A DNA stretch of 64,000 nt from Bacteroidota bacterium (GCA_037134895.1 JBAXLI010000006.1:38812-102811); one strand, 5' to 3'; shown: positions 1,443 to 49,858, counted from the first letter of the stretch. Notes: a model not told the origin generated them from the sequence alone. Made by a program: numbers and translations.

Positions 1443-1496
1443 AACCAACAACCAACAACCAACAACCAACAACCAACAACCAACAACCAACAACCA
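1443..1496 (+). repeat. tandem heptanucleotide array (AACCAAC) x7 plus a partial unit
   Basis: Direct reading gives aaccaac repeated perfectly from 1443 to 1491, then aacca. The array ends 4 nt before ATG 1501. Confidence 0.95.
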
Positions 1497-4946: not shown

Positions 4947-6995
4947 ATGGAAGCTGGCAAACCACTGATGATGAAACTGATCAAAAACGACGCCTGGCTT
5001 GAGCCCGTCACGGCCGAAATAAACGACCGGTATTTCAGGTACAAAAACACTCTTGACGGCATTAAAGAGGAATGGAAATCCCTGTCTAAATTCGCAGATG
5101 CCTATACTTTCCTGGGGATACATCATGACCGCAAACTCAAAAGATGGTCTTACAGGGAATGGGCGCCGCACGCCCAGGACCTTTACATTTTCGGGGATTT
5201 CAACAACTGGCAGCGGTATTCTCACCGTCTGAACCGCGACAAAAACGGTATCTGGGAAATTTTCCTCCCCGATGATGAATACGGCGATCGCTTCATCCAC
5301 CTTGGCAAGATCAAGGTCATGGTCCATTCCGACCAGGGCTGGCATGAACGGCTGCCGGCTTATATCACCAGGGTCGTACAGAATCCCGAAACCAAAGATT
5401 TTACGGGTCAGATATGGAACCCTCCTGTACCTTTCGACTGGGAAAATGACAAATTCGACCTCCGCCGCCTGCAAGAACTGTTCATATACGAATGTCATCC
5501 CGGGATGTCACAGGAACGTGAAGGGATTGGCAGTTTTTCTGAGTTTGCGGATGACCTTATCCCGTATATCAAGAATGCCGGGTATAATGTAATCCAGCTA
5601 ATGGCCGTCGCTGAACACCCGTATTATGGATCTTTCGGCTACCATGTCACCAATTATTTTGCTGTCTCAAGCCGTTTCGGCACACCGGAAGAGCTGAAGT
5701 ACCTCATTAAAAAAGCCCATGAGCAGGACATCGCTGTTATCATGGACCTGGTTCATTCGCATGCCGCCAAAAACACCAACGAAGGACTGAACATGTTCGA
5801 CGGAAGCGATCACCAGTATTTTCATGCAGGCCCAAGGGGAAACCACCCCCACTGGGACTCCAAGTGCTTCGATTACGGAAAACCGGAAGTTCAGCAATTC
5901 CTTCTTTCAAATGTCAAATACTGGCTGAAAGAATTTCATTTCGACGGATTCCGTTTCGACGGTGTCACCTCGATGATGTATTTCGATCATGGGTACCGCG
6001 AGATCTGGGACCGTGACGGGTATTTTAAAGATGGTGTCGAATGGGATGCAATTACTTACCTCCAGCTTGCAAACACCCTCGCTCACCAGGTCAAAGCCTC
6101 GGCCCTCACTATAGCCGAAGATGTTACCGGAATGCCGGGGCTCTGCCGTCCGATCAAAGATGGCGGTATTGGCTTCGATTTCCGCCTTGGAATGGCACTG
6201 CCCGATTACTGGATCAAGCTTCTGAAGGAAAAGCAGGACGAGGACTGGGATGTTGACGAACTCTGGAGGGTCATGAACGACCGCCTCCCTGATGTGAAAA
6301 CAATAGCATATTGCGAATCACATGACCAGGCACTCGTAGGAGACCAGACTATTGCTTTCAGGCTGATGCAAAGCGAAATCTATTTCAAGATGAGCATGGA
6401 AGAGGAAAGCCATATCATCGACCGCGGGATATCCCTTCATAAAATGATCCGCCTGTTTACACTTGCTTTAGGCGGACAGGCATACCTGAATTTTATGGGC
6501 AATGAATTCGGGCATCCCGACTGGATTGACTTCCCCCGGGAGGGCAATAACTGGAGTCACCAATATGCCCGCCGGCAATGGTCTCTCGTACAAAACCCGA
6601 AATTGAAGTACCGCTTCCTGGGCGAATTCGATAAGGAAATGATCAGGCTTTCAAAAGCATACCACCTCCTCGAAACAAATTTCGGGAACCAGGTATGGAT
6701 GGACCAGTCAAATAAAACTGTCATTTTCGAAAAATCCGGGCTTCTTTTCGTATTCAATTTCCATACCGGCAACTCCATCCCGGATTATGCTTTCAGGATA
6801 CCAGTGCCCGGAGACTACAAGCTGATCCTGAACTCCGATTCCCTTGCTTTCGGAGGCCACGGACGTATTGATGAATCGGCTGTCCACACAAGCATCTTCA
6901 ATCCTGGGGACAACTCGCATACATTAAAAATTTATAACGTTAACCGCACAGTCCAGGTCTTTGAACGCATTCCTTCAACAAACCCTAACCCCTAA
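4947..6995 (+). CDS. glgB: 1,4-alpha-glucan branching enzyme, eukaryote-like GH13_8 type
   Basis: GH13 regions are present: DLVHSHAA, FDGFRFDGVTSMMY (the GH13_8-type region II, unlike DALRVDAV of E. coli GlgB), IAEDVTG and YCESHDQ. An N-terminal CBM48-like segment is present (YREWAPHAQDLYIFGDFNNW). The start may be M8/M9 (4968/4971, MMKLIKNDAWLEP). Confidence 0.9.
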   Translation: MEAGKPLMMKLIKNDAWLEPVTAEINDRYFRYKNTLDGIKEEWKSLSKFADAYTFLGIHHDRKLKRWSYREWAPHAQDLYIFGDFNNWQRYSHRLNRDKNGIWEIFLPDDEYGDRFIHLGKIKVMVHSDQGWHERLPAYITRVVQNPETKDFTGQIWNPPVPFDWENDKFDLRRLQELFIYECHPGMSQEREGIGSFSEFADDLIPYIKNAGYNVIQLMAVAEHPYYGSFGYHVTNYFAVSSRFGTPEELKYLIKKAHEQDIAVIMDLVHSHAAKNTNEGLNMFDGSDHQYFHAGPRGNHPHWDSKCFDYGKPEVQQFLLSNVKYWLKEFHFDGFRFDGVTSMMYFDHGYREIWDRDGYFKDGVEWDAITYLQLANTLAHQVKASALTIAEDVTGMPGLCRPIKDGGIGFDFRLGMALPDYWIKLLKEKQDEDWDVDELWRVMNDRLPDVKTIAYCESHDQALVGDQTIAFRLMQSEIYFKMSMEEESHIIDRGISLHKMIRLFTLALGGQAYLNFMGNEFGHPDWIDFPREGNNWSHQYARRQWSLVQNPKLKYRFLGEFDKEMIRLSKAYHLLETNFGNQVWMDQSNKTVIFEKSGLLFVFNFHTGNSIPDYAFRIPVPGDYKLILNSDSLAFGGHGRIDESAVHTSIFNPGDNSHTLKIYNVNRTVQVFERIPSTNPNP

Positions 6996-7024
6996 TCCCC
7001 AATCCCTAATCCCTAATCCCTAAT
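6983..7024 (+). repeat. tandem heptanucleotide array (CCCTAAT-type) x6
   Basis: The units are ccctaac ccctaat ccccaat ccctaat ccctaat ccctaat. The array overlaps the glgB stop codon (6993-6995) and ends 5 nt before ATG 7030. Confidence 0.95.
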
Positions 7025-7029
7025 AAAAA

Positions 7030-9686: not shown

Positions 9687-9715
9687 CCCAAGTGTACAAT
9701 TAAACAATACAGACC

Positions 9716-11230
9716 ATGATGAATGAACGTGCCTCCGGCATTCTGCTGCATCCTACTTCCCTGCCCGGCAAATACGGGATCGGAACACTCGGCAAAGCTG
9801 CATTTAATTTTATTGACTTTCTCACTAAGGCAAAACAACAATACTGGCAGATTCTTCCCCTGGGCCCCACCGGGTATGGCGATTCCCCATACCAGTGTTA
9901 TTCGGCTCATGCCGGAAACCCCGATCTGATCAACCTTGAACTCCTGGTAAAATACGGTCTGTTAACAAACGACGATCTGAACTCAATGCCCCATTTCCCA
10001 CAGGGAGAAGTGCAATACGAACTGGTGCAGAAATCAAGGCTGCCTTTACTTCTCAAAGCTTTTCATGCCTTTGGGGAACATGCCCCGGATCTGGATAAAC
10101 TTGCATACCGCAACTTCCTGAAGAGTCATGCTGCATGGATTAACGATTACGCATTGTTCAGGGCCATCAAGGAAGAATCGGGAAACCTTCCATGGTATAA
10201 CTGGGCAAAAGAGCTTAGAACCCGCAACCACGATGCTTTAAAAGCCGCAGAAAACAGGCTCTCAGGGAAGACCGACTTCCATAAATTTCTTCAGTTCCTC
10301 TTTGCAAAGCAGTGGCAAAGCGTTAAAGAATATGCTAAAAAACATAAGATTCTTATCATTGGCGATATCCCCCTGTATATTTCACCCGATTCGACTGATG
10401 CATGGGCCAATCCCGATGTGTTTGAATACGATGAAAACCTTCAGCCACTTAGAGTCGGGGGCGTGCCTCCCGATTATTTCAGCGAAACCGGTCAGCTCTG
10501 GGGAAACCCGCTGTTCAGGTGGGATGCGATGAAAAATAATGATTATAAATGGTGGATGGACCGGATTCGCACCAACCTGACCCTGTATGATGTTATCAGA
10601 ATTGACCATTTCAGGGGATTTGCCGCCTACTGGGCTGTACCTTACGGGGAGGAAACAGCTGTCAGGGGAGAATGGATCCCCGGCCCGGGCAAGGACTTCT
10701 TCCACGCACTCCGGAAAGAATTCGGTAAGCTCCCGATCATAGCCGAAGACCTCGGTGTCATGACCCCCGATGTGGAGGACCTTCGTGACAGCTTCGGCCT
10801 TCCCGGGATGAAGATCCTCGAATTCGCCTTTGATTCATCGGAGGAAAATGACTACATCCCTTACAATTATACAAAAAACTGCATTGTTTATTCAGGCACT
10901 CATGATAATGATACCGTGGTCGGATGGTTCGCAAAAGCATCTGAAGCCGACAGGAAACAGGTACTTGCATATATCAATAATGACGGGAAAGATATCCACT
11001 GGTCATTCGTAAGGCTTGCGTGGTCATCGGTTGCGAATACTGCAATTGTGCCGATGCAGGATCTTCTCGGACTCGATTCCTCAACGAGGATGAACCTGCC
11101 GGGAACAGTCGGAGGCAATTGGAAGTGGAGAGCTAAGGAAGGTGATTTCCCCGATGAACTGGCCGGGGCCCTTGCCGATCTGACCGTTTTGTTCGGACGC
11201 ACAAAAAAAACAACAAGTAAACCAAAGTAA
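9716..11230 (+). CDS. malQ: 4-alpha-glucanotransferase (amylomaltase), GH77
   Basis: GILLHPTSLPGKYGIGTLG N-terminus, PLGPTGYGDSPYQ, IRIDHFRGF (nucleophile Asp), IAEDLG, YSGTHDNDT. These are the canonical GH77 blocks. Confidence 0.92.
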   Translation: MMNERASGILLHPTSLPGKYGIGTLGKAAFNFIDFLTKAKQQYWQILPLGPTGYGDSPYQCYSAHAGNPDLINLELLVKYGLLTNDDLNSMPHFPQGEVQYELVQKSRLPLLLKAFHAFGEHAPDLDKLAYRNFLKSHAAWINDYALFRAIKEESGNLPWYNWAKELRTRNHDALKAAENRLSGKTDFHKFLQFLFAKQWQSVKEYAKKHKILIIGDIPLYISPDSTDAWANPDVFEYDENLQPLRVGGVPPDYFSETGQLWGNPLFRWDAMKNNDYKWWMDRIRTNLTLYDVIRIDHFRGFAAYWAVPYGEETAVRGEWIPGPGKDFFHALRKEFGKLPIIAEDLGVMTPDVEDLRDSFGLPGMKILEFAFDSSEENDYIPYNYTKNCIVYSGTHDNDTVVGWFAKASEADRKQVLAYINNDGKDIHWSFVRLAWSSVANTAIVPMQDLLGLDSSTRMNLPGTVGGNWKWRAKEGDFPDELAGALADLTVLFGRTKKTTSKPK

Positions 11231-11231
11231 A

Positions 11232-13088: not shown

Positions 13089-13110
13089 TCCATCTAATAA
13101 ACCCGAAAGC

Positions 13111-14373
13111 ATGCTCCTGATTCAAAAGAAACTCTCGAACCTGTTTTACCTGCTCATCGGCTTTCCAAGTACCGCGATGGGCTTTGCCCTATCGATCCAG
13201 ATCGCTGTTCTGAGTTGGATACTGCGGACGAAATACAACCTCGAAATCGACCAGATAGGTATCGTGTGGGCCGCCGGTCCGATTGCCGGTATCCTCGGCC
13301 AGCCGCTTGTCGGACTGATCAGCGACAAGATCTGGTTTTGGGGCGGAAGGCGTAAGCCTTTTATAATTATCGGAGGGATGCTGGCAGCCCTGATGATCTT
13401 CGCCCTTCCCAACATTGATAAAATTAATGATTTCTTCGGGATCGGCAGTATACTTGCTGTAGCTGTAACTGTAGCCCTGACCCTCGACCTTTCGATCAAC
13501 ATCAGCTTCAACCCTACACGGGCCATCATTGCCGATGTGACTCCTGACGGACAACCCCGTACCAAAGGATACACCTGGATGCAGAGTGTTTCAAACCTCT
13601 TCGGCAGCGGGGCCTATCTTATGGGAGCCCTTATCAGCAACTACTTCCTTATCTATGCCGGTGTGATCATCGTGTTCCTTTTCTCTATAGGGCCGCTGAT
13701 CTTCATCGAGGAGCCCCGGGAACTTAAAGCATCGGAAGACGATAAAGGCAATGCCGTGAAGACTAAAACCCAGTGGGGAGAGCTTTTCAAACTGTATGTT
13801 GCTCACAGCTTTTCATGGCTGGGCATACAAACCATGTTTGTGTATATTTTCGCTTACCTGGAACAGAAAATGCCTTCAATGCAGAACGTCCCGGCCGCCG
13901 ACCGCAACGCCCATCTGGGACAGATGATAGGCTGGTCGTTTTTTATCCTGAACGCAGTAGGCGCTATTTGGCCTGCATTTCTGCTTGCCCCGATGAGCAA
14001 AAAGGCAGGCCGGGTAAAAACCCAGGCCCTGATGGTGGCCAGTATGAGCGCAGGATATTTCGGGATAGTTTTCCTGGCAAGTACTCCATTCATGCTGTAT
14101 GCAATGATGTGCGTGCTGACTCTCGGATGGGCTGCCGTCGTGAGCCTGCCGTTTGCCATCATGTCTGAAAAAGTCGACAAAACCAGGATGGGATTCTTTA
14201 TGGGCATCTTCAACCTCAGCGTCGTACTTCCCCAGCTTGTTGCAAGCCTTGCAATCGGGCGTGTGATCAACCAGGCAGCAGACAAAAGCATGGTATTTGT
14301 CATAAGTGGTGTATCACTTGCCATTTCAGCTTTCCTCTGGCTGTTCGTGAGCGAGAAAAAGAAATCTGTTTAA
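13111..14373 (+). CDS. second MFS sugar:cation symporter, SLC45-like paralogue
   Basis: GLISDKIWFWGGRRKPFIIIGG motif, about 12 TM helices, and a C-terminal half alignable to the 7030..8379 product (GFFMGIFNLSVVLPQ versus GVMMGIFNLFIVIPQ). Confidence 0.85.
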   Translation: MLLIQKKLSNLFYLLIGFPSTAMGFALSIQIAVLSWILRTKYNLEIDQIGIVWAAGPIAGILGQPLVGLISDKIWFWGGRRKPFIIIGGMLAALMIFALPNIDKINDFFGIGSILAVAVTVALTLDLSINISFNPTRAIIADVTPDGQPRTKGYTWMQSVSNLFGSGAYLMGALISNYFLIYAGVIIVFLFSIGPLIFIEEPRELKASEDDKGNAVKTKTQWGELFKLYVAHSFSWLGIQTMFVYIFAYLEQKMPSMQNVPAADRNAHLGQMIGWSFFILNAVGAIWPAFLLAPMSKKAGRVKTQALMVASMSAGYFGIVFLASTPFMLYAMMCVLTLGWAAVVSLPFAIMSEKVDKTRMGFFMGIFNLSVVLPQLVASLAIGRVINQAADKSMVFVISGVSLAISAFLWLFVSEKKKSV

Positions 14374-14383
14374 AACCTCAGAA

Positions 14384-15817
14384 ATGTACAAAGCCATTGG
14401 TATACTTTTCCTCCTGACAGCAAGCCTGGGATCTGAAGCCCAGACTTTTCAGAAATTTCTCGACAGGATCAATGCCCTTCCTCTTACTGAAAGACAGGCC
14501 GTGGCCGACAGTTTCATCACAGCCTGTCCATCCTTTCCTTTTATTGAGTTTGACACCCTTGCGCATCTGATATATACCGGAACAACCACTTCCGTAGCGA
14601 TGGCCGGAGATGCCACACAATGGAACCCCAATGAGAACTTTACACTGATACAGGGAACGACCTTCTGGTACCTTACTAAAAAATACGAAGCTGATGCCCG
14701 CCTCGACTATAAACTGGTGACCGGGGGCAGTAACTGGATTCTCGATCCCAGGAACCCTAAAACCTGCATTGGTGGCTATGGCCCAAACTCTGAACTAAGG
14801 ATGGGAGGCAACGTCCCTCCACCCGAAGTCCTGTATTACCCTGAAATCCCTCACGGGACAATCAAAGACACTACATTTCACAGCATTCTATTCAACAATA
14901 CAAGGCAGGTATTGATCTATCTACCTCCTTCATACCCCCTGCCCGGAATGGAGTACCCTGTGATCCTCTTCCACGACGGGCCTGAGTACATCAGCCTGGC
15001 CACCGCGAGAAACGTTCTGGATTACCTTATCGCAAACAAAATAATGAACCCTGTGGTCGGGATCTTCGTACCCCCCGTCGACCGGCAACCCGAGTACGCC
15101 GGGACAAAGATTGACCTGTTCACATCATTCATTACAACAGAATTGATGCCCTTTTTCGACCAGAGATATAAGATCAGCAAAGACCCTGCTAAACGGGCCA
15201 CCCTGGGCGCCTCCGACGGGGGGAATATTGCCCTCTACCTGGGAGTTAAAAAGCCCGGTTGCTTCGGGAAGATTGCAGCCCAGTCGAGCGACGTCATCCC
15301 TGCAATAAGCGACGCTCTTCAGAACGGGCCAAAACTAAACCTCAGTTTCTATATCGACATCGGCACATACGATATCCCGCAACTGATCCCAATGGTGCAC
15401 AACCTTCGCGACATCCTGCAGGCTAAAGGGTATTCCTACAGCTTCCGTGAGATCCATGAGGGACACTCCTGGGGTAACTGGAGAGAACACCTGAGGATCC
15501 CTTTGATGCAGTTTTTTCCTTATTCCTTGGGGATGAGTGAGATCCCCGACGACAATATCATCCGCCTTGAACCAAACAGGCCAAACCCTTTCAGGGGAAA
15601 TACCGATATTATCTTCACTGCCCCTGCCGGTTCAACAGTTCATCTCGATCTTTGCGATTTCTCAGGAAGACTGCTTGAATCAATCTTCAGCGGGACCGTT
15701 TCCGTGACCTCCGGAAGCATCAGGTTCAGCAAGGGAAACCTTAAGGCAGGAAACTACCTCTGCACACTTGAGGTCGGGGGTTACCACACCAGCAGAATTT
15801 TTACAATCATTGATTAA
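14384..15817 (+). CDS. secreted esterase (PF00756 esterase-D/CE1-like) with N-terminal E-set/CBM48-like module and T9SS C-terminal sorting domain
   Basis: Signal peptide. N-terminal module VAMAGDATQWNPNENFTL...YKLVTGGSNWILDPRNP. Hydrolase core with the nucleophile elbow LGASDGGN and HEGHSW. The C-terminal ~85 aa (NRPNPFRGNTDIIFTAPAGSTVHLDLCDFSGRLL...GNYLCTLEVGGYHTSRIFTIID) match the T9SS type A CTD pattern. Confidence 0.8.
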   Translation: MYKAIGILFLLTASLGSEAQTFQKFLDRINALPLTERQAVADSFITACPSFPFIEFDTLAHLIYTGTTTSVAMAGDATQWNPNENFTLIQGTTFWYLTKKYEADARLDYKLVTGGSNWILDPRNPKTCIGGYGPNSELRMGGNVPPPEVLYYPEIPHGTIKDTTFHSILFNNTRQVLIYLPPSYPLPGMEYPVILFHDGPEYISLATARNVLDYLIANKIMNPVVGIFVPPVDRQPEYAGTKIDLFTSFITTELMPFFDQRYKISKDPAKRATLGASDGGNIALYLGVKKPGCFGKIAAQSSDVIPAISDALQNGPKLNLSFYIDIGTYDIPQLIPMVHNLRDILQAKGYSYSFREIHEGHSWGNWREHLRIPLMQFFPYSLGMSEIPDDNIIRLEPNRPNPFRGNTDIIFTAPAGSTVHLDLCDFSGRLLESIFSGTVSVTSGSIRFSKGNLKAGNYLCTLEVGGYHTSRIFTIID

Positions 15818-15849
15818 AGCCATATTTCTAACAATAAAATGCTGAATTC

Positions 15850-18237
15850 ATGAAACATTTAAACAGTTACTTGTACTTTATGGGCTTTGCCGTATTGCTG
15901 TTTTCCTGCAGCAAAGGAAGCGATATCCCCGTTTCAAAAGACCCCCAGATGCTAAAGCTTTCAGCCCCTGTTGTTGTGAACACCACCGACTCAACAGTGC
16001 TTGAACTCAGCGACTACCTGCTGTATCCCAACAAAATAGACTCGTTTTTCGTCGACAAGTCCTTACAGGCTTTGATTTCACCTGATTCATTGCGGATGGT
16101 CATTCACCCGCAGAACCAGAATTTTCCACGGCTCAGCATCATGACAATATGGTCAGGGGGATTCTCTTATTCCCTGCTGCTCGAACGTTCACAAAAGATA
16201 CATTACCGCTTCGGTTTTGATCCGGGTAACAAGAAGTATAAAAGGGTTCAGATCGCCGGACAGATGAACGACTGGAATGCTTCAGGCGGACCCATGTTCA
16301 TGAAAGAAGGGAAATGGTACATCGACCTGCATCTTTTCCCTGGAAAATATCAGTATAAAATTGTTTGTGACGGAAAGTGGATGAGTGACCGCAACAATAC
16401 CGATTCGGTTTCAAATAACTCGGGCGGTTTTAACTCCCTGCTGACGCTTGGAAACCTCAATCAGCAAGGTCTCCCCTTGTTGTATACAAAGGAAGCCGAT
16501 GGACGTAAACTCAGTCTTGGTATAAAGAATAATGCCGACACGATCTTTGTACTCTGGGATAATCATATGCTCGACAGCAGGTTCTGGAAGGCCGACAGCA
16601 ACGGCATTCATATCAGCGTTCCTAAATCAGCATCTTCTTTCGACCGCAGCTTTGTAAGGGCCTGGGCTGTAAATAAAACAGGTATCTCTAATGAGATACT
16701 GATCCCGCTCGAAGACGGGAAAGTAATTACCGAGGCTGCAAAACTGAAGCGCACCGACCAGGAAACAATGATATTATATTTCATGATGGTTGACCGCTTC
16801 AGCGATGGCAGCAAAGAAAACAACGCCCCCATTGCTGATAAGGATATCGATCCAAAAGTCAATTATATGGGAGGCGATCTCAGCGGGATCACAAAGGAAA
16901 TTGACAAGGGGTACTTCTCAAAGCTTGGTGTAAACACCCTGTGGATCTCCCCTGTGACACAGAATCCCAGGGAAGGGTATGTGGAGTTCCCTGCACCCCA
17001 TAGAAAATTTTCAGGCTATCACGGGTACTGGCCGATAACCCTGACCACCATCGATACCAGGTTCGGAACCCCTGATGAACTGCACAAGCTTGTAAACGAT
17101 GCCCACTCTCAGGGACTGAATGTCATCCTCGACTTTGTTTCACATCATGCCCATGAGAATTATCCTGTGTTCAAAGCACATCCCGACTGGATCACCCAGC
17201 TCGACCTTCCGGGAAAAAGAAAAAACATAAGGATGTTCGACGAAAACAGGCTTACAACATGGTTCGATATCTTCCTCCCAACGTTCGACCTTCAGAAACC
17301 TGAAGTGGCCCAAATGGTTTCCGATTCTGCAGCATTCTGGATCAGGGAATATAATATTGACGGCTTCAGGCATGATGCTGCCAAACATGTACCTGAAAAC
17401 TACTGGAGGATGCTGAATAAAAAACTTACTCAACAGGTCGTGATACCCCAGGGAAGGAAGGTATACCAGATCGGCGAAACCTTTGGAAGTCGTGAACTTG
17501 TAAAGAGTTATATCAATCCCGGTATGCTCGATGCCCAGTTCGAATTTAACCTCTATTGGGATGCCAGGGCTGCCTTTGCTACTGACAATGCGTCCTTTCG
17601 CGACCTGAATTTTTCACTCCAGCAGTCGTTTAGCTATTACGGAGAACACAACCTCATGGGAAATATCACAGGGAACCAGGATATGCCAAGGTTCATCTCT
17701 TATGCCAGCAACTCCCTGAGCTTTTCGGAGGATGCAGGTGAAGCCGGATGGAAGCGTGACATAGAAGTAAAGGACACCATCGGATACAGGAGACTGGCAT
17801 CACTCATGGCATTCAACATGACCATCCCGGGAATCCCCGTGATCTATTATGGGGACGAATATGGAATGCCCGGGGCCGGTGATCCCGACAACCGGAGGAT
17901 GATGAAGTTCGACAGCCTGAATGCCAGCGAAAAACACCTGCTGGGAATTACGTCAAAACTTGCAAATCTTCGCCGTACAAGCATGCCGTTGATCTATGGC
18001 GATTTTACCACACTGAAAGTCAATGATAAGGTGTTTGTATACATGCGTTCTTACTTCGATAAAGCGGTCATCGTTATATTCAATAAAGACCAGAATCAGA
18101 AAAAGATTGAATTTGACATCCCTGAACGCTATATCAAACTAGCCTTCATATCAACATTTGGTAACCAGTTCACACTTGAGAAGGGTAAGGTAACTATTTC
18201 ATTAAACGGTAATTCATTTGAACTTTTAACAAATTAA
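15850..18237 (+). CDS. GH13 alpha-amylase-family lipoprotein with CBM48-like module
   Basis: Lipoprotein signal AVLLFSCSK. CBM48-like block VQIAGQMNDWNASGGPMFMKEGKWYIDLHLFPGKYQYKIVCDGKW. GH13 regions DFVSHHAH, DGFRHDAAKH, IGETFG, GNQDMPRF. Confidence 0.85.
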   Translation: MKHLNSYLYFMGFAVLLFSCSKGSDIPVSKDPQMLKLSAPVVVNTTDSTVLELSDYLLYPNKIDSFFVDKSLQALISPDSLRMVIHPQNQNFPRLSIMTIWSGGFSYSLLLERSQKIHYRFGFDPGNKKYKRVQIAGQMNDWNASGGPMFMKEGKWYIDLHLFPGKYQYKIVCDGKWMSDRNNTDSVSNNSGGFNSLLTLGNLNQQGLPLLYTKEADGRKLSLGIKNNADTIFVLWDNHMLDSRFWKADSNGIHISVPKSASSFDRSFVRAWAVNKTGISNEILIPLEDGKVITEAAKLKRTDQETMILYFMMVDRFSDGSKENNAPIADKDIDPKVNYMGGDLSGITKEIDKGYFSKLGVNTLWISPVTQNPREGYVEFPAPHRKFSGYHGYWPITLTTIDTRFGTPDELHKLVNDAHSQGLNVILDFVSHHAHENYPVFKAHPDWITQLDLPGKRKNIRMFDENRLTTWFDIFLPTFDLQKPEVAQMVSDSAAFWIREYNIDGFRHDAAKHVPENYWRMLNKKLTQQVVIPQGRKVYQIGETFGSRELVKSYINPGMLDAQFEFNLYWDARAAFATDNASFRDLNFSLQQSFSYYGEHNLMGNITGNQDMPRFISYASNSLSFSEDAGEAGWKRDIEVKDTIGYRRLASLMAFNMTIPGIPVIYYGDEYGMPGAGDPDNRRMMKFDSLNASEKHLLGITSKLANLRRTSMPLIYGDFTTLKVNDKVFVYMRSYFDKAVIVIFNKDQNQKKIEFDIPERYIKLAFISTFGNQFTLEKGKVTISLNGNSFELLTN

Positions 18238-18244
18238 CACGGTT

Positions 18245-19603
18245 ATGAAGAGAACATTAATTTTCATTGCTGCAATTCTTGTGATTATGAGTGCATGCAA
18301 ACCTAAAACCGAACCGAAAGCAGTTGGCGGGAAAGTGGTGCATCCCGATTGGAGCCGCAACGCCACTATTTATGAGGTGAATGTGAGGCAATACACCCCC
18401 GAAGGTACCTTCAAAGCTCTCCAGCAACATCTTCCCCGCCTGAAAAAGATGGGCGTTGATATACTCTGGCTGATGCCAATTAATCCTATCGGTGAAAAGA
18501 ACCGCAAAGGAAAACTGGGCAGCTACTATGCAGTAAAGGATTACCTGGCAGTCAACCCTGAATACGGTAACATCAGCGATCTGAAAGAGCTTGTTTCCAA
18601 AGCTCATGAACTGGGAATGTACGTAATTGTCGACTGGGTTGCCAACCATACTTCCTGGGACAATGCACTGGTGACCCAGCATCCCGACTGGTATAAAAAA
18701 GACTCAACCGGAAAGATCATCCCACCTGTCGCCGACTGGTCTGATGTTGCAGGCCTGGATTATTCCAATAAGGACCTGAGGAAGTACATGACCGATGCAC
18801 TTTGCTATTGGGTAAAAGAAGCCAATATCGACGGTTACCGTTGTGATGTGGCCGGCATGGTTCCTGTGAACTTCTGGAACGAAGCCGTCCCCCAGGTCAA
18901 AGCCATAAAACCCATCTTTATGCTCGCCGAATGGGAAACACCGGAAATGCACGATTCCGCTTTTGATGCGACCTATTCATGGGATTTGTACAAACTCGCC
19001 AATGACATCGCGGCAGGGAAAAAAACAGCCGACAAGATTGATTCAAACTATGCAGGCGAAACAAAAAAATATTCTCCCGATGCTTACCGGATGAGGTTCA
19101 CTTCGAATCACGATGAAAATTCCTGGAACGGCACCGAATATGAAAGACTTGGTCCCGCCGCTCAGACCTTTGCAGTATTCTGTTTCACATTCCCGGGTTT
19201 CCCCCTCATCTACACCGGGCAGGAATCAGAAATGAAGCGCAGGCTGCGTTTCTTTGACAAGGATACCGTACCCTGGGGAAATTATCCGCTCGAAGGGTTC
19301 TACACTGCTCTCTGTAATCTTAAGAAAACGAACAAAGCCCTGCAGAATGGAGCTGCCGGCGGCCCGCTCGTCAAGATCAGGAACGATAACGAGAAAGTCG
19401 TTTACTCATTCATGAGGGAAAAAGACGGGAATAAAGTCCTGGTAATCCTCAATCTCTCTTCGGCACCATGCAAGGTGAAATTCCCTGAAGGCCTGCCCGC
19501 CGACACCTGGAAATCTCTTTTTGGCAGTGAAAATCTGAACACCGCCAAAGACCTTGTTATGAAACTGAAACCCTGGGAGTATAAAGTGTATACTAAACAG
19601 TAA
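18245..19603 (+). CDS. GH13 alpha-amylase lipoprotein (catalytic domain only)
   Basis: Lipoprotein signal ILVIMSACKP. GH13 regions DWVANHTS, DGYRCDVAGM, LAEWE, FTSNHDEN. Confidence 0.85.
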   Translation: MKRTLIFIAAILVIMSACKPKTEPKAVGGKVVHPDWSRNATIYEVNVRQYTPEGTFKALQQHLPRLKKMGVDILWLMPINPIGEKNRKGKLGSYYAVKDYLAVNPEYGNISDLKELVSKAHELGMYVIVDWVANHTSWDNALVTQHPDWYKKDSTGKIIPPVADWSDVAGLDYSNKDLRKYMTDALCYWVKEANIDGYRCDVAGMVPVNFWNEAVPQVKAIKPIFMLAEWETPEMHDSAFDATYSWDLYKLANDIAAGKKTADKIDSNYAGETKKYSPDAYRMRFTSNHDENSWNGTEYERLGPAAQTFAVFCFTFPGFPLIYTGQESEMKRRLRFFDKDTVPWGNYPLEGFYTALCNLKKTNKALQNGAAGGPLVKIRNDNEKVVYSFMREKDGNKVLVILNLSSAPCKVKFPEGLPADTWKSLFGSENLNTAKDLVMKLKPWEYKVYTKQ

Positions 19604-39013: not shown

Positions 39014-39098
39014 AAATATTCCTGGAGTTGTATCAGCGGCAAAATTAAAAAATAGGGAACACCCATCATTTTATTTGGCAGAGTTAAAAGTTTATTTA

Positions 39099-39106
39099 TA
39101 ATTTTG
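39099..39106 (+). promoter_or_regulatory. candidate -7 box TAATTTTG (TAnnTTTG) for the RND efflux operon
   Basis: Consensus match in the AT-rich region upstream of the adaptor gene. It overlaps the ORF-track TTG start (39104), which argues for a downstream ATG start. Confidence 0.35.
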
Positions 39107-39133: not shown

Positions 39134-40297
39134 ATGAGAGAGACATACCTAAACCGTCTTCTATGCTTTGCTGCCGCTATTCTCATCGTCATCAGCCCTG
39201 CATGCAAATCGAAGGAAAAAGGGCCAGTCCAGGCTCCCGAATTTAAAGTAATGCAGCTCAAGGGAAGCACCGTTCCCGTATTTCTTGACATGGTTGGGCA
39301 GGCCGAAGGCATTCCAACAGTAGACATCCGGGCCAGGGTTGAAGGTTATCTGATGAACTGGTCTTTCCAGGAAGGTTCGATGGTGAATAAAGGTCAGCAT
39401 CTGTTTCAAATTGAAAAGGATCAGTACAAAAACACGCTTGATTATTCCAAAGCCGACCTTGATTCTAAAACAGCAGCCTGGGAAAAAGCCAAGCTGGATG
39501 TCGCCAGGTTAAAGCCCCTGCTTGCAACCAACGCCATCAGCCAGAACGATTATGATGTTGCTGTGACAACCGAAAAACAAACCAGGGCTGCGGTTGCAAG
39601 TTCCAAAGCCGATCTGGAACAGGCTACACTTAATCTCTCATATACTGATATGGATTCTCCCATCACCGGTTATATCGGGGCTGTACAGGTAAGACCGGGA
39701 AACCTTGTCGGCAGGGGAGAAAGCACGCTTCTTGCCACGGTATCTGCCGTAGACCCAATGTATGTCAATTTCCAGATGAACGAAACCGACTATCTTTCGA
39801 TTGTGAGGTATGTGGCCAACCATAAAGGGGAACTTGTCAAAAACGGACCGATAAAGGTTTACCTGACCTTGGCCGATAAAAAGAAATATCCCATACCGGG
39901 TGAGATCGATTTTATGGACAGAAATGTTAACGCAAATACAGGGACTTTAGCCCTCAGGGCAAAAGTTGCCAATCCTGAGCATATCATTAAACCGGGGAAC
40001 TACTGCCAGGTGCAGCTTGTCCTCGGTGAAAGGGATTCAACCGTGATCGTACCCCAGAGTTCCCTTACCATTGTCCAGGGCAAATATTTCGCTTTTGAAG
40101 TGAATGACTCCAATAAAGTCAACAGGGTTCCTGTTGCCACAGGACGCAGTTTTGAAAACAAGATAGTTATTGCAAGAGGATTGAAGCCGGGATCAAGGAT
40201 CATGCTTGAAGGTTTTCAAAAGTTCCAGGAAGGCATGACAATAAAGCCTGTAATTGTTCAGGACACTTTAACCCTGCCCGGACCGGGAGTACTGTAG
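39134..40297 (+). CDS. RND efflux periplasmic adaptor (membrane fusion protein, AcrA/HlyD family) lipoprotein
   Basis: Lipoprotein signal LLCFAAAILIVISPAC. Lipoyl/hairpin/beta-barrel order (VDIRARVEGYL, coiled-coil 39420-39620, SPITGYIGAVQVRPGNLV). The start could also be ATG 39110. Confidence 0.85.
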   Translation: MRETYLNRLLCFAAAILIVISPACKSKEKGPVQAPEFKVMQLKGSTVPVFLDMVGQAEGIPTVDIRARVEGYLMNWSFQEGSMVNKGQHLFQIEKDQYKNTLDYSKADLDSKTAAWEKAKLDVARLKPLLATNAISQNDYDVAVTTEKQTRAAVASSKADLEQATLNLSYTDMDSPITGYIGAVQVRPGNLVGRGESTLLATVSAVDPMYVNFQMNETDYLSIVRYVANHKGELVKNGPIKVYLTLADKKKYPIPGEIDFMDRNVNANTGTLALRAKVANPEHIIKPGNYCQVQLVLGERDSTVIVPQSSLTIVQGKYFAFEVNDSNKVNRVPVATGRSFENKIVIARGLKPGSRIMLEGFQKFQEGMTIKPVIVQDTLTLPGPGVL

Positions 40298-40412
40298 GAT
40301 TTACGATTTGCGAATTACGTTCGGCGAAGCCGTAATGAGCACCATTAAAATTAACAATATTGCGAATAATTACGAATTACGATTTACGATTTACGAATTA
40401 CGAATTACGAAT
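40298..40412 (+). repeat. degenerate heptanucleotide array (TTACGAA/TTACGAT type) in two blocks
   Basis: Block 1 at 40298-40320 is gatttacgatttgcgaattacgt. Block 2 at 40361-40412 is tgcgaataattacgaattacgatttacgatttacgaattacgaattacgaat. A 40-nt unique segment separates them. Confidence 0.85.
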
Positions 40413-40416
40413 GCTT

Positions 40417-40494
40417 AACCCCTAACTCCAAATCCCTAATCCCTAACCCCTAACCCCTAATCCCCAACCCCCAACCCCCAAACCCTAATCCCCA
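40417..40494 (+). repeat. degenerate heptanucleotide array (CCCTAAT/CCCTAAC/CCCCAAC type), about 11 units
   Basis: aacccctaactccaaatccctaatccctaacccctaacccctaatccccaacccccaacccccaaaccctaatcccc. It ends 4 nt before ATG 40499 of the RND pump and uses the same unit as the array at 6983-7024. Confidence 0.95.
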
Positions 40495-40498
40495 CAAT

Positions 40499-43400
40499 AT
40501 GCTCCAGACCTTTATCACCCGTCCGATCCTTGCTTCCGTGATCGCTATAATCATCACACTGGTCGGCATCCTGTCAATGTTCACACTTCCGATCTCACAG
40601 TACCCGGATGTTGTTCCCCCTACTGTGACGGTTACAGCATTTTATCCAGGTGCAAGTGCTGAAGTGGTTCAGAAAACCACAGCTGTTCCACTGGAGGAAC
40701 AGATCAACGGGGTTGACAACATGATCTATATGCAGTCCCAATGCGCTAACGACGGATCCTGCCTCATTACGGTGTATTTTGAAGTAGGTACCGACCCCGA
40801 TATGGCGACTGTAAACGTACAGAACAGGGCCCAGCGGGCATATAATGTTCTTCCCCAGGAAGTAAATCAGAGCGGGGTTATCATCATGAAAAAGAACCCG
40901 GCCATCCTTGCACTGTATACTTTGAGCTCGGCTGACACGGCTTATGACACCAAGTTCCTTGCGAACTATTGCAATATTAATATTGTGAATGTACTTAAGC
41001 GTATCAAAGGAGTAGGAGACGTTTCACTTTTCGGGGGTGACGACTATGCAATGCGGGTCTGGCTGATTCCCGAGCGCATGGCAGGCTTTGGTCTCACTCC
41101 ACAGGATGTCGAGAAGGCCATCAGGGACCAGAACCTGGAATCGGCACCGGGCCAGATCGGAAAAAATCCGGCAGCTTCAGGACAACAGGTAAGTTATGTG
41201 GTTCGCGTAAAAGGAAGGTTCACCGAAGAAAAAGAATTCGATAACATCATCATTCGTTCAAATCCAGATGGGTCTTTTATCAGGATAAAAGATGTGGGCC
41301 GATCAGAACTTGGATTGAAGACCTATGACAATTACTCCAGGCTCAACGGAAAAACAGCGCCAGCCGTGGCTGTTTACCAGTCGCCCGGATCAAACTCCCT
41401 GGCTGTTAAAAAAGCCTGCGACAATGCATTAAACGAACTTGCAAGGGAATTCCCGAAAGGCATCTCCTACCAGGTGGCTCTTGACACAACTGCTTTTGTA
41501 ACTGCCTCCATAGATGAAGTTCTCAAAACCCTGATGGAGGCATTTGTTCTTGTGTTCATAGTTGTATTTATTTTCCTCCAGGACTGGAGGGCGACCCTGA
41601 TTCCTGCTATTACGGTCCCTATTTCGCTTATTGGAGCCCTTGCGGTATTTTCATTTTTCAATTTTTCAATTAACCTTCTTACACTGTTTGCACTTGTGCT
41701 TGCGATCGGGATAGTCGTTGACGATGCCATTGTGGTCCTCGAGGCAATCCAGGAAAAGATCGACACCCATCACCTCTCACCCCTGGATGCAGCCAGGGAG
41801 ACCATGAAGGAAATAACCGGGGCAATCATTACGATCACCCTGGTGCTTTGTGCAGTCTTTATACCGGTAACATTCCTGGGCGGAACTACAGGGGTGATGT
41901 ACAGGCAATTTGCAGTCACCCTGATCGCATCCATCTTCATATCTGCAGTGCTGGCCCTTATACTCAGTCCTGCTCTCTGTGCTATACTTCTCAGGCCATC
42001 GACCAAGAAAAAAGGGCTGATAGGGAAATTCTTCAATGGCTTCAACAAAGGGTTTGAAAAAACAGTTCACGGATATGGCAATCTTGTAACTAATTTCATG
42101 CACCACACATCGAGGCCTTTAATATTCCTTGGCATTGTTGCGGTACTCATGATCCTTATCATGAAAACCCTTCCCACCGGGTTCATCCCGTCTGAAGACC
42201 AGGGTTATTTCTTTATTAATGCCACCACACCAAAGGCCGCTTCGCTTGAAAGGACCGACAAAGTCATGCAGAAGGTGGAAGCCATCCTTGCAAAAACCGA
42301 AGGTATTAAATATTACCTGATCGTACCCGGATACAGTATCCTCGACAATTCGGTGAACACCACAAACGCCATGGCATTTATTAATCTTGTTCCCTGGGAC
42401 AAAAGGGATAAGACCGCCGATGAGATCATCGCCGAAGTCCAGGCCAAGATGAAACGGATTCCCGGTGGAATTTGCATGGCATTCAATCCGCCTGCAATCC
42501 CCGGCCTTGGAAAAACCGGAGGTCTCGAATTCCAGATTGAAGACAAAACAGGCTCCGGCTCCGCAAAGCTTGCTGAAGTCACAGGTGCATTTGTTGCTGA
42601 AGCAAACAAAAGAAAGGAATTTGCCAGCATCTTTACCTCATTCAGGAACGATGTACCACAGTTTTTCATTGACCTCGACAATGACAAAGCGAAAAAAATG
42701 GGGGTTTCGGTGAGTGAGATTTACGGAGCCCTCCAGGCCATGTTCGGAAGCTATTACGTTAACGATTTCAACAAATTCGGCAAATCCTACCGCGTCATTA
42801 TTCAGGCCGATGCCCAGTACCGGGCCAATCCCGAGGATCTGCAGAAAATTTATGTCAGGAATAACATCGGAGGCATGGTACCACTCGGAACCCTGCTTTC
42901 GATCAGGGCTGTTCAGGGTCCCGACATTGTAAAGCGATTTAACCTTTTCAGTTCTTCCGATATGACTGCCAACGTTGCAGATGGCTATAGTACCGGCCAG
43001 GCTATTGAAGCAGTTAAGGAGGTTGCTGCCAAAACTCTTCCATACGGGTTTGGGTATGAGTATTCAGGTAACACGCGTGAGGAGCTTATCTCGGGCGGAC
43101 AAGCGCCATTTATTTTTGCAATGTGCTTCGTTTTCGTTTACCTGTTGCTCTGTGCACAGTACGAGAGTTGGCTCCTCCCTATGCCGATCCTGCTGGCCCT
43201 GCCATTTGGCATCTTCGGAGCATTTGGTTTTCAGTGGATAAGAGGTCTCCAGAACAATATCTTTGCCCAGATCGGCCTGATCATGCTTATCGGCCTTGTT
43301 GCCAAAAACGCCATCCTTATAGTAGAATTTGCGCGGCAAAAATATCAGACAGGCATGGATATATATGAGGCGACCCTGGCAGGAGCAAAACTTCGTTTCA

Positions 43401-43660
43401 GGCCTATCCTTATGACCTCATTCGCATTCATTCTTGGTGTAGTGCCTCTGGTAATTGCAGTAGGCGCCGGTGCAAACAGCCGTAATGCCCTTGGAACTTC
43501 CGTATTCGGAGGGATGCTGATGGCTACTATGTGCGGTGTACTTGTAGTTCCAACACTCTATATCGTATTCGAAAAATTTGAAGAGAAACTCAGGAATAAG
43601 AAAGAAGCTCCTGTAGCTGAAAACACCAGTAAAACTAATTCCAAACCGACAATCTCCTGA
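40499..43660 (+). CDS. RND multidrug efflux permease (AcrB/HAE1 family)
   Basis: 1053 aa with a 12-TM/2-large-loop architecture. N-terminus FITRPILASVIAIIITLVG. Conserved VDDAIVVLE and AKNAILIVEFA blocks. Confidence 0.95.
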   Translation: MLQTFITRPILASVIAIIITLVGILSMFTLPISQYPDVVPPTVTVTAFYPGASAEVVQKTTAVPLEEQINGVDNMIYMQSQCANDGSCLITVYFEVGTDPDMATVNVQNRAQRAYNVLPQEVNQSGVIIMKKNPAILALYTLSSADTAYDTKFLANYCNINIVNVLKRIKGVGDVSLFGGDDYAMRVWLIPERMAGFGLTPQDVEKAIRDQNLESAPGQIGKNPAASGQQVSYVVRVKGRFTEEKEFDNIIIRSNPDGSFIRIKDVGRSELGLKTYDNYSRLNGKTAPAVAVYQSPGSNSLAVKKACDNALNELAREFPKGISYQVALDTTAFVTASIDEVLKTLMEAFVLVFIVVFIFLQDWRATLIPAITVPISLIGALAVFSFFNFSINLLTLFALVLAIGIVVDDAIVVLEAIQEKIDTHHLSPLDAARETMKEITGAIITITLVLCAVFIPVTFLGGTTGVMYRQFAVTLIASIFISAVLALILSPALCAILLRPSTKKKGLIGKFFNGFNKGFEKTVHGYGNLVTNFMHHTSRPLIFLGIVAVLMILIMKTLPTGFIPSEDQGYFFINATTPKAASLERTDKVMQKVEAILAKTEGIKYYLIVPGYSILDNSVNTTNAMAFINLVPWDKRDKTADEIIAEVQAKMKRIPGGICMAFNPPAIPGLGKTGGLEFQIEDKTGSGSAKLAEVTGAFVAEANKRKEFASIFTSFRNDVPQFFIDLDNDKAKKMGVSVSEIYGALQAMFGSYYVNDFNKFGKSYRVIIQADAQYRANPEDLQKIYVRNNIGGMVPLGTLLSIRAVQGPDIVKRFNLFSSSDMTANVADGYSTGQAIEAVKEVAAKTLPYGFGYEYSGNTREELISGGQAPFIFAMCFVFVYLLLCAQYESWLLPMPILLALPFGIFGAFGFQWIRGLQNNIFAQIGLIMLIGLVAKNAILIVEFARQKYQTGMDIYEATLAGAKLRFRPILMTSFAFILGVVPLVIAVGAGANSRNALGTSVFGGMLMATMCGVLVVPTLYIVFEKFEEKLRNKKEAPVAENTSKTNSKPTIS

Positions 43661-43661
43661 T

Positions 43662-45032
43662 ATGAGTTCAAAAAAATATATTCTCCTGGCCCTGGTCCTG
43701 TTGTTCCTTGCAGGCAACAACGGCTGTAAAATAGGCCCGAACTATAAAAGGCCCCAGGAAGACCTTGGGAAACAATACAGGTTCTCAAGCCAGACCGATT
43801 CAGTCACTTTTGCCGATACCTCCTGGACAAAGCTGTTCAGGGATACCGTTCTGCATAATATGATCAGGAAAGGCCTTAAAGCCAATTTCGATATCCGGAT
43901 CGCCTATGCAAGGGTAAACCAGGCTCTGGCCCAATTCAAGTCGGCAAGGGCAGACCTTTTCCCCTCAGTTCAAATCAATGGGAATGTACTTTATCAGAAC
44001 AATGAGGTTCCCCCCTCGGGAACATCTGAATTCAATGATGCCTACCTTAATGCAGGCCTCACCTGGGAGCTCGATGTATGGGGAAAACTCAGACGTGCCA
44101 AGGAGTCGGCAAGAGCCCAGCTTTTGTCACAGGAAGCATACCGTCAGGCAACCTACATTAACCTGATATCCAGCATTGCCCAGGGTTATTATTCCCTTCT
44201 TGAGTACAGGGATGAATACAGGATCACCAAAGAAACCGTAAAGATCCGTGAAGAAGCCCTGGCCCTTGTAAAAGCCAAACTCATTGCCGGAACTGCCTCG
44301 GGTCTCGTTGTTGCACAGGCCGAAGCTGAACTCGCAACTGTGAAAACTCAAATCCCTAATCTTGAAAAAGCAATCGGGAAACAGGAAAATGCAGTCAAAC
44401 TGTTACTGGGGGACTTGCCGGGTGAAGTTAAATCAGGGAGTTCCCTTATGGCCCAGGTTGATACAAACATAATCCCGAAAGCAGGTATCCCTTCATCCCT
44501 GATCGTTCGTCGTCCTGACCTTATTGCTGCGGAACAGCAGCTTGTATCGGCAAATGCCCAGATCGGAGTTGCCCGTGGAATGATGCTGCCGAAGCTCACC
44601 ATCAGTGCTGATATCGGAGCATCGACATTAGCCGGTGGCATGATAGGTTCGGCTGTTGGCGGACTTGTGGCTCCTATCTTCAACTGGGGAAAACTCAGGG
44701 CAAACCTGCGAAAATCTCAGGCTTATCATGAAGAAATACTGGCCACTTACCAGAAATCGATATATACTGCCATCTCCGAAGTGTCGGATGGAATGCTGTC
44801 TGTCACTAAGATGAGGCAGATGGTTATGGAGCAAAGGAATCTCAAAAACGCAGCCCAGACTGCTTTTGACCTCTCAAACCAGCTCTGGAATGCAGGGTAT
44901 GCGAGTTACCTGGATGTGATCAACGCCCAGAGATTGCTTTACCAGGCAGAAGTGCAATTGTCCCAGGCTGAACTTAACTCACTTCAGAGCGTGGTGAGCC
45001 TTTACCTCGCATTAGGAGGGGGCTGGAAATAA
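43662..45032 (+). CDS. RND efflux outer-membrane factor lipoprotein (NodT/TolC family)
   Basis: Lipoprotein signal LFLAGNNGCKIGPNYKRP (the typical NodT start). Duplicated TolC-like helical/beta repeats. C-terminal LYLALGGGW. Confidence 0.9.
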   Translation: MSSKKYILLALVLLFLAGNNGCKIGPNYKRPQEDLGKQYRFSSQTDSVTFADTSWTKLFRDTVLHNMIRKGLKANFDIRIAYARVNQALAQFKSARADLFPSVQINGNVLYQNNEVPPSGTSEFNDAYLNAGLTWELDVWGKLRRAKESARAQLLSQEAYRQATYINLISSIAQGYYSLLEYRDEYRITKETVKIREEALALVKAKLIAGTASGLVVAQAEAELATVKTQIPNLEKAIGKQENAVKLLLGDLPGEVKSGSSLMAQVDTNIIPKAGIPSSLIVRRPDLIAAEQQLVSANAQIGVARGMMLPKLTISADIGASTLAGGMIGSAVGGLVAPIFNWGKLRANLRKSQAYHEEILATYQKSIYTAISEVSDGMLSVTKMRQMVMEQRNLKNAAQTAFDLSNQLWNAGYASYLDVINAQRLLYQAEVQLSQAELNSLQSVVSLYLALGGGWK

Positions 45033-49766: not shown

Positions 49767-49858
49767 CGTAAGTAAGGACGTGATGAAGGTCGTAATGAAG
49801 GTCGTGATGAAGGACGTAATGAAGGACGTAATGAAGTACGTGATGGTCGTGATGAGTA
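49767..49858 (+). repeat. tandem 12-nt array (CGTRATGAAGGW), about 8 units
   Basis: The units are cgtaagtaagga cgtgatgaaggt cgtaatgaaggt cgtgatgaagga cgtaatgaagga cgtaatgaagta cgtgatggt cgtgatgagta. The array begins 8 nt after the TPR gene stop and runs into the 5' end of the next ORF. Confidence 0.9.

Follow-up and report, generated by a model that had tools for sequence, protein, structure and literature searches.

The junction between the adaptor and pump genes of a resistance–nodulation–division (RND) efflux operon was found to be a persistent hot spot of short tandem repeats in about 50 related Bacteroidales lineages. The operon is located in a 64-kb stretch of DNA, examined as one strand, from an uncultured bacterium of the Bacteroidota (Bacteroidales). 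This whole stretch is referred to as the window, and about 74 kb of sequence of the window species was available in all. In the window, a spacer of 201 bp (40298–40498) built from two heptamer arrays separated the adaptor stop codon (TAG, 40295–40297) from the pump start codon (ATG, 40499–40501). The persistence of a repeat hot spot at one operon junction through many lineages, together with its stop-to-start polarity in composition and its conserved unit, appears to be new; a literature search of limited reach found no published account of such a junction. We give even chances to the reading that the spacer is a slippage tract filtered by position to serve as an open, G-poor leader of the pump gene, with the number of units varying pump output. 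The operon and its spacer contained the following parts:

39074..39106, + strand: Bacteroidetes-type promoter-like site (TTTG-N-TAnnTTTG, from a regular-expression scan), about 28 nt 5' of the adaptor ATG
39134..40297, + strand: RND periplasmic adaptor (membrane-fusion protein) gene, 387 aa, Pfam HlyD_D23/HlyD_3
40298..40367, + strand: proximal spacer part with three degenerate TTACGAT-like heptamers, then an imperfect hairpin and an AT-rich stretch
40368..40412, + strand: heptamer array (TTACGAA/TTACGAT) x6.4
40416..40494, + strand: C-rich array of CCCTAAT/CCCTAAC/CCCCAAC units, x11
40495..40498, + strand: CAAT linker from the end of the C-rich array to the pump ATG, which puts an A at position −3
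40499..43660, + strand: RND inner-membrane pump gene, AcrB family, 1053 aa, Pfam ACR_tran (1125 bits)
43662..45032, + strand: outer-membrane factor (OMF) gene, starting 1 nt past the pump stop codon, Pfam OEP

Tandem Repeats Finder (TRF) recovered the first array with the unit AATTACG (94% matches, score 76) and the second with TAACCCC-type units (82% matches, scores 84–109). Both were head-to-tail simple sequence repeats within the 5–11-nt class, here heptanucleotides, and exceeded chance length. A long, repeat-built spacer, as claimed in a preliminary description of this DNA, was therefore present. That description had also placed TTACGAW units in two blocks. The array at 40368–40412 was recovered, but the block at 40298–40320 consisted only of three degenerate heptamers (TTACGAT, TTGCGAA and TTACGTT) and stayed under the TRF threshold. 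The sense strand was free of G from 40414 to 40500, as had been stated; these 87 nt were the longest G-free run of the window, with approximately 5 × 10−6 runs of this length expected from base composition. The G-free stretch was approximately 53% C, with C present in each 7-nt unit. No open reading frame (ORF) spanned the spacer and the heptamers brought TAA in rotating frames, so a coding spacer was rejected. The unit TAACTGA was not among the TRF repeats listed for the window. Since the arrays were present in independent ENA, NCBI, JGI and Logan assemblies, an assembly artefact was rejected as well. The observation of the spacer itself was confirmed, and the interpretation earlier attached to it was partly supported.

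Orthologous loci gathered from metagenomes numbered 58, from approximately 50 distinct lineages with adaptor identities to the window of 58–91%. These lineages are related rather than independent, so the p-values reported for them are optimistic. Their adaptor–pump spacers measured 5–251 nt (median about 89) and consisted almost wholly of 7–8-nt tandem repeats. The premise that adaptor and pump genes are normally adjacent thus failed in this operon family, where the junction was repeat-built in about 50 lineages. Across the 58 loci, TRF found 44 arrays in 5.4 kb of spacer versus 28 in 335 kb of flanking sequence, mostly coding 12/15-mers, an approximately 100-fold excess. Only 3/58 spacers were 11 nt or shorter. 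The pump–OMF junction next door was 1–26 nt long and contained no arrays. While about 50 lineages diverged and the units turned over, the junction remained full of repeats, which argues for maintenance of the tract or of some such spacer.

The units differed by lineage (AATC, ATTCAAT, CCCTAAY, TAATTTT, GACTTTY and others) and showed a polarity along the spacer. Purine- or G-rich units were found at the stop codon (GGTAGCGA, AATAGCGA, AATGGTGA, AAGTGAAC, CAAGGTGA, GACGTRA and others). The units before the pump ATG were G-poor, most often TCGTAAA or TCGTAAT followed by an A-run. G made up 26.8% of the initial 30 nt and 7.6% of the final 30 nt, with a decrease in 35 of 39 spacers (p = 2 × 10−7), and the last 20 nt contained 44% A, 30% T, 18% C and 7.5% G. 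CGTAAW was present in the sense orientation in 29/58 spacers (69 copies) and in the reverse orientation in 2/58. Within 738 kb of related sequence, TCGTAAW arrays of at least two units were almost confined to this spacer, by which a genome-wide spread of the unit was rejected, and the shortest spacers (L194, L200, L205) still held single copies. A 5' octamer array alone accounted for spacers of 179, 219 and 251 nt in one species (L154, L162 and L155, respectively). A strong intercistronic hairpin replaced the 5' array in some lineages. The spacer of L211 (4165–4296), shared with L222, contained (GCGAAAA)n, the complementary (CATTTCGC)n and a T-run, a terminator-like arrangement with a minimum free energy (MFE) z-score of −4; in L190 (4165–4250), a long GC-rich hairpin preceded (TCGTAAA)x3. 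Pairing between 5' and 3' arrays was rejected as a general feature, being found in one lineage only (L211/L222).

Read in reverse complement, the TTACGAW array of the window was the TCGTAAW array typical of the family rather than a separate invention. The reverse complement of 40298–40415 aligned to orthologous spacers with a mean local score of 38.9, compared with 15.4 for the forward sequence, and was the better match in 26/28 comparisons; with L016 the match was 28 nt long (score 51 versus 12 forward). The minus strand of 40298–40367 resembled orthologous spacers at their pump-proximal end (CGCAAATCGTAAATC, AATGGTG). The better alignment of the reverse complement therefore indicates that the ancestral spacer was inverted in the window lineage. 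All 11 loci of the window species that reached this part (10 distinct contigs) had one and the same orientation, from which we conclude that the flip was an old event; an active invertible DNA switch was rejected. Units in reverse complement were also observed in L168/L196, L210 and L217/L223 (CACCTTGT versus CAAGGTGA; GACTTTY versus RAAAGTC), and array inversion at this junction hence occurred more than once. The C-rich array was found in no other lineage of the operon family. Sister lineages contained a single CAAATCCAATTAACCCCC directly before the pump ATG, a plausible seed of the C-rich array.

Within the window species the tract varied in length, as proposed earlier, and array lengths compared between strains gave three alleles that differed by whole heptamers. 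Among contigs with a residue-identical adaptor, the spacer measured 201 bp (window, L008), 173 bp (L001/L003, L004) or 166 bp (L007, L009 and, in part, L005), with 7-bp steps in both arrays. The 173-bp allele had four C-rich units fewer than the 201-bp allele, and the 166-bp allele was the 173-bp form minus one TTACGAT. The G-free stretch was accordingly 87 nt long in the long allele and 59 nt in the short alleles. All copy numbers were taken from short-read assemblies, in which repeats may be collapsed, so exact counts are uncertain. Many contigs of independent assemblies ended in or beside heptamer arrays (L002, L005, L006, L010–L014, L148, L231 among them), a pattern suggesting that the repeats broke the assemblies or that the populations carried mixed alleles.

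The three genes were co-directional, as is typical of a tripartite RND operon, and this gene order was kept in all relatives; an identical adaptor protein was encoded on 13 public contigs. The promoter-like site at 39074–39106 was one of only two distinct motifs of its type on either strand of the 64 kb. A sigma-70-type scan also marked 39075–39102, and the site likely drives the operon. Neither a sigma-70-type nor a Bacteroidetes-type promoter was found within the spacer, and no intrinsic terminator was found there; the hairpin at 40301–40335 was no more stable than shuffled sequences (z −0.34). An internal promoter or terminator was rejected on these grounds. A structured RNA or riboswitch was rejected because the top Rfam match, a snoRNA model, had an E-value of 0.54 and the fold of the whole spacer had a z-score of −0.32. 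Since a promoter motif was located before the adaptor gene and none in the spacer, the pump gene is most likely co-transcribed with the adaptor gene, and the repeats would then form an intercistronic leader.

The second and third longest G-free runs of the window (6968–7031 and 1437–1502) each held an array as well:

6983..7024, + strand: (CCCTAAT)x6 array, overlapping the stop of a GH13 gene; 5 nt separate its end from the ATG (7030) of a gene encoding a maltose-type MFS transporter
1443..1496, + strand: (AACCAAC)x7.7 array, A and C only, with its end 4 nt short of the ATG (1501) that opens a 91-aa ORF

Each of the three longest G-free runs extended up to the AT of a same-strand start codon, so that 3/3 G-free arrays abutted an ATG; the arrays were intergenic, forward, a few nt before the start codon and unaccompanied by a Shine–Dalgarno sequence. 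At 6993–7032 of the window, the CCCTAAT array provided the final codons of the GH13 gene together with its stop. In relatives at 87–89% identity the GH13 and MFS genes overlapped by 8 nt without an array (L226/L227, about 6001–6008). The 91-aa ORF, which encoded a hydrophobic C-terminal tail, had an ordinary leader without the AACCAAC array in relatives. The MFS and small-ORF arrays were therefore confined to the window species and missing from its sister species. Both varied between strains by whole units, so that such variation was found at three loci of the window species: the AACCAAC array had 7.7 copies in the window and 6.7 and 3.7 elsewhere (L232, L233), and the MFS array had 6 units in the window and 8.9 in a strain with a 98%-identical MFS protein (L224/L225). 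Approximately 74 kb of the window species contained two C-rich and two other heptamer or octamer loci. In L231 (325–395), 10 kb left of the window, (GGTGACAG)x8.6 was located right after a stop codon and approximately 50 nt before the next ATG; units of this type also form the arrays next to the stop codon in the RND spacers of L176 and L170, two other lineages. A different array, (AAGGACGTAATG)x6 with a period of 12, was located at 49774–49845 of the window, directly 5' of a caspase-domain gene whose true start, to judge from the N-termini of orthologues, is the ATG near 49853. Each AAGGACGTAATG unit contained an in-frame ATG preceded by AAGGA, an odd feature as AUG is depleted near starts in this phylum. 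The array was the same in four contigs of the window species and missing from relatives. A co-directional cluster for starch/maltodextrin utilization (4947–19603) was conserved in relatives and encoded GH13 with CBM48, two MFS sugar transporters, GH77, a cyclomaltodextrinase and further alpha-amylase-family proteins.

The positional preference of the C-rich unit extended beyond the window. A scan for (CCCTAAT)x3 in one genome per species gave matches in at least 120 species; the matches listed, among which the window's own genome was not found, belonged to Bacteroidota, Planctomycetota, Cyanobacteria, Chloroflexota, Acidobacteriota, Clostridia and others, often with several loci per genome. 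With a start defined as the first ATG opening an ORF of at least 80 aa, an ORF start was located within 40 nt downstream of 32/112 arrays read on the C-rich strand and of 11/114 read on the G-rich strand among the matches listed (p = 0.002). Within 100 nt the numbers were 49 and 18 (p = 0.0002), respectively. Upstream of genes the C-rich strand was therefore the mRNA-sense strand at about 3:1, a general preference among the matches listed, and the earlier view of the unit as a repeat family with a preferred location was borne out by these counts and by the three arrays abutting an ATG in the window. The G-rich sequence after the stop codon, the G-poor sequence before the start codon and the 3:1 orientation bias across phyla together point to constraints at the RNA level in organisms whose translation starts without Shine–Dalgarno pairing.

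Folding predictions agreed with the proposed unstructured leader. The three G-free leaders had predicted MFEs of 0, 0 and −1.7 kcal/mol, with 0 for the C-rich pump leader. Among 34 window genes, the predicted structure of the initiation region was weakest in the three led by arrays (MFE of −0.1, −0.4 and −5.0, compared with a mean of −10.0). No Shine–Dalgarno signal was detected in the 34 window gene starts, and the start regions of the window genome were G-poor (13% versus 22%) and A-rich (40%), in line with the Shine–Dalgarno-independent setting assumed earlier. A was enriched at positions −12 (68%) and −11 (59%), and G was almost missing at −10 and −4. Bacteroidetes start regions are known to be likewise G-poor, A-rich and without Shine–Dalgarno sequences (PMC6847099, PMC7797042), and an A at −3 favours initiation in this group (PMC6847099). 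In 53 lineages, the predicted accessibility of the pump start exceeded that of dinucleotide-shuffled spacers (mean z +0.82, p = 3 × 10−7), with the lineages not independent. Mimicry of the 16S rRNA 3' end by TCGTAA, GTAACAAGGTA and GGTAGC was considered and dropped as numerology, because the words were short, the candidates were many and the window array had the opposite orientation.

From these observations we propose the following sequence of events for the slippage tract. Arrays of 7–8 nt would arise and change size by replication slippage in a hypermutable intra-operon tract, and selection would retain those that fit their position. G-rich units would be tolerated after the adaptor stop codon, and G-poor units that are not self-complementary would be retained before the pump ATG. 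In the window species the ancestral TCGTAAW leader was inverted, and the C-rich array would then have grown from a local 'CAAATCC..TAACCCC' seed beside the pump ATG. The outcome would be 87 nt of G-free RNA without predicted secondary structure, ending in CAAT-AUG with an A at −3. Bacteroidota ribosomes ignore Shine–Dalgarno sequences and use open, A-rich leaders, and the open tract would allow 30S subunits to load on the pump cistron whether or not the adaptor is being translated. As units are gained or lost, pump output relative to the adaptor would change in a heritable and reversible manner; both the effect on translation and the dependence of expression on copy number are inferred here. 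Several points weigh against this proposal. A neutral tract would look alike in most tests made here, the accessibility signal is modest and comes from lineages that are not independent, and the openness in the window follows from composition alone (0.85 in shuffles, 0.90 observed). Spacers of 5–11 nt in three lineages imply that a long leader is not required, and a need for 'any unstructured sequence' does not explain why the TCGTAAW unit was kept in 29/58 lineages. The copy numbers depend on short-read assemblies that can collapse repeats, and Rehm et al. detected no role of analogous repeats in gene regulation (PMC4692102).

The same report would suit the explanation that the repeats are a neutral by-product, namely self-perpetuating slippage DNA at a junction of unconstrained length, from which only harmful variants are purged and in which copy number does not affect expression. 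We regard this as rather unlikely. It would account for the free replacement of units between lineages, the flipped arrays in several of them (window, L168/L196, L210, L217), the absence of the MFS and small-ORF arrays from sister species that function nonetheless, and the three lineages with 5–11-nt spacers. It fits poorly with an approximately 100-fold local enrichment that has lasted over about 50 lineages while the pump–OMF junction stayed short, since the deletion bias of bacteria is expected to remove useless DNA. Retention of TCGTAAW in the sense orientation in 29/58 lineages and a start-region accessibility above shuffles are also unexpected for a neutral tract. Another explanation is that of repeated binding sites, in which TCGTAAW (and post-stop units of the TAGCGA/TGGTGA type) would be bound by a sequence-specific RNA- or DNA-binding regulator of the operon, with copy number setting occupancy. 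Precedents are the heptad TTTTGAT repeats of ctxAB, which are bound by regulators (bioRxiv 10.1101/2021.05.14.444153), and the S1, cold-shock and CsrA-type proteins proposed as binders of TAACTGA repeats (PMC4679880). The bias of CGTAAW towards the sense strand (29/58 with 69 copies versus 2/58), the near-confinement of arrays of at least two units to this spacer in 738 kb and the single copies retained in the shortest spacers would fit such sites. The reading is weakened by the inversion of TCGTAAW in the window species, which would destroy an RNA-level site and yet left the operon intact in many samples. Furthermore, the unit is missing in about half of the lineages, no regulator gene was conserved beside the operon in relatives, and neither a structure nor an Rfam family was found, and we therefore judge binding sites to be quite improbable.

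Two further explanations concern the C-rich array of the window species. Rho prefers unstructured RNA free of ribosomes, rich in C and poor in G, of at least 70–80 nt with regularly spaced C (PMC6407284). By its sequence and predicted fold, the pump leader has the features of such a Rho-utilization (rut) site: 87 nt, no G, approximately 53% C, a predicted MFE of 0, an ORF stop codon 117 nt upstream of the G-free stretch and a (C+1)/(G+1) ratio of 44 over 78 nt, the most extreme value in the 64 kb, with those of the other two arrays next. The leader may act as a tunable Rho-loading site, where partial termination between adaptor and pump would lower the pump:adaptor ratio; this is compatible with the slippage-tract proposal. 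The alleles differ by 28 nt, and G-free stretches of 59 and 87 nt straddle the 70–80 nt of Rho, so slippage could switch polarity. Rho is active in Bacteroides species (PMC13269538, PMC11347177). The orthologous leaders, however, were not C-rich (C equals G in TCGTAAW; AATC and ATTCAAT are AT-rich), which would make Rho loading a species-specific add-on; the features compared are those of published rut sites and may differ from those of Bacteroidota Rho, and efficient ribosome loading at the adjacent AUG would oppose Rho. We consider a rut site unlikely. The sequence fits a rut site, which the preliminary description did not consider, at least as well as the G-quadruplex (G4) that it proposed. 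In that explanation, a template-strand G4 or a C-strand i-motif hinders RNA polymerase or replication and sets the adaptor:pump ratio. The quadruplex-forming pattern was indeed present on the complementary strand, with nine G-tracts at 40434–40493 and six at 6983–7020, 2–4-nt loops and thus more than the required four tracts; these complements of the two C-rich arrays were the only canonical quadruplex motifs of the 64 kb. The mean G4Hunter score over 40430–40500 was −1.86. Oligonucleotides of the related GGGAATC and GGGGAYT repeats form G4s, and their C-strands i-motifs, in vitro, and these repeats share the strand and position bias (PMC4692102). Isolated hairpins aside, no orthologous spacer had G-tracts on either strand, and the AACCAAC array, for which a canonical G4 is impossible, occupied the same position. 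G-freeness and quadruplex potential were confined to the window species and cannot be the conserved function of the spacer; the G4 reading is weakened accordingly. During transcription the G-rich strand is moreover the template paired to RNA and not the displaced strand, and the analogous repeats have no shown in vivo role (PMC4692102). We find an effect of DNA structure highly doubtful.

A stronger version of the slippage-tract proposal would treat the junction as an evolved 'mutable valve', a persistent microsatellite whose unit number sets the amount of pump per adaptor, in the window species through a length-dependent tract for Rho loading and ribosome standby. We think it improbable that all of this holds. 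If it did, the junction would be an intra-operon contingency locus acting on efflux subunit stoichiometry and would give start-proximal heptamers a function. Such heptamers have been catalogued for decades (cyanobacterial STRR, Xanthomonas, Beggiatoaceae) without an assigned function. The persistently repeat-filled junction, the compositional rule with its orientation bias and the natural alleles with 7 and 11 C-rich units make the question testable. An effect of copy number on pump output would open a new way to heritable heterogeneity in efflux and possibly in drug or toxin tolerance; without such an effect, the junction would be a clean case of position-filtered junk DNA in a bacterial operon.

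The repeat class itself is already known from STRR, GGGNATC and TAACTGA repeats, and the earlier analogy with STRR was apt. The claim that such repeats are not described for Bacteroidota did not hold, as start-proximal heptamers were reported in five Bacteroidetes (PMC4679880). The repeats GGGAATC of Xanthomonas and GGGGA(C/T)T of Nostoc, the latter equal to STRR1 CCCCA(A/G)T, are G4-capable, non-coding, transcribed, scattered through the genome in hundreds of copies and highly variable in number and sequence between close relatives (PMC4692102). Like the C-rich array, they are tandem 7-mers with a G3–4 tract per unit, mostly between co-directional ORFs. They are located either no more than 50 bp upstream of an ORF, the G-rich strand then being the non-coding one, or over a stop codon as at 6983–7024; neither they nor the present repeats are tied to surface or virulence genes. 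In position, both C-rich arrays agreed with these repeats, ending 4–5 nt before an ATG between co-directional genes. The units differed. On the G-rich strand they were ATTAGGG, GTTAGGG(G) and GTTGGGG(G), and only CCCCAAT-type junctions matched GGGGATT. Unlike the Xanthomonas and Nostoc repeats, the arrays were composed mostly of CCCTAAY with one or two CCCCAAT, occurred at two C-rich loci in about 74 kb, showed no preference for four units (6, 7, 9 and 11 here) and belonged to an uncultured Bacteroidales host. Because its unit differs from GGGAATC/GGGGAYT, the C-rich array is a relative rather than a member of that class.

The TAACTGA and other heptamers of Beggiatoaceae, cyanobacteria and five Bacteroidetes (MacGregor 2015, PMC4679880), for which a translational role was proposed, are intergenic, forward, near the start codon and associated with mixed gene functions, as observed here. 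They also share 7-nt indels between strains, a lack of Shine–Dalgarno sequences and contigs that end in repeats. Apart from the different units, the Bacteroidetes relatives in that study lacked repeats at the same site, whereas the present junction was repeat-filled over about 50 lineages. Natural rut sites (PMC6407284) resemble the pump leader in being at least 78 nt long, much richer in C than G, unstructured and untranslated, but they are not tandem repeats. Mrazek et al. (2007), as summarized in PMC4679880, describe long prokaryotic simple sequence repeats of 5–11 nt in which heptanucleotides predominate, with a proposed slippage origin and a sporadic taxonomic distribution. This is similar to the present case, although that work concerns genome-wide statistics and not a locus-specific, persistent hot spot. 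The AGAT repeats of Moraxella catarrhalis uspA2, as summarized in PMC4679880, are likewise located between promoter and start codon with a strain-dependent copy number. According to that summary, expression of uspA2 was shown to depend on copy number, the gene encodes a surface antigen and the unit is 4 nt, whereas the present repeat has a 7-nt unit and precedes an efflux pump gene within an operon.

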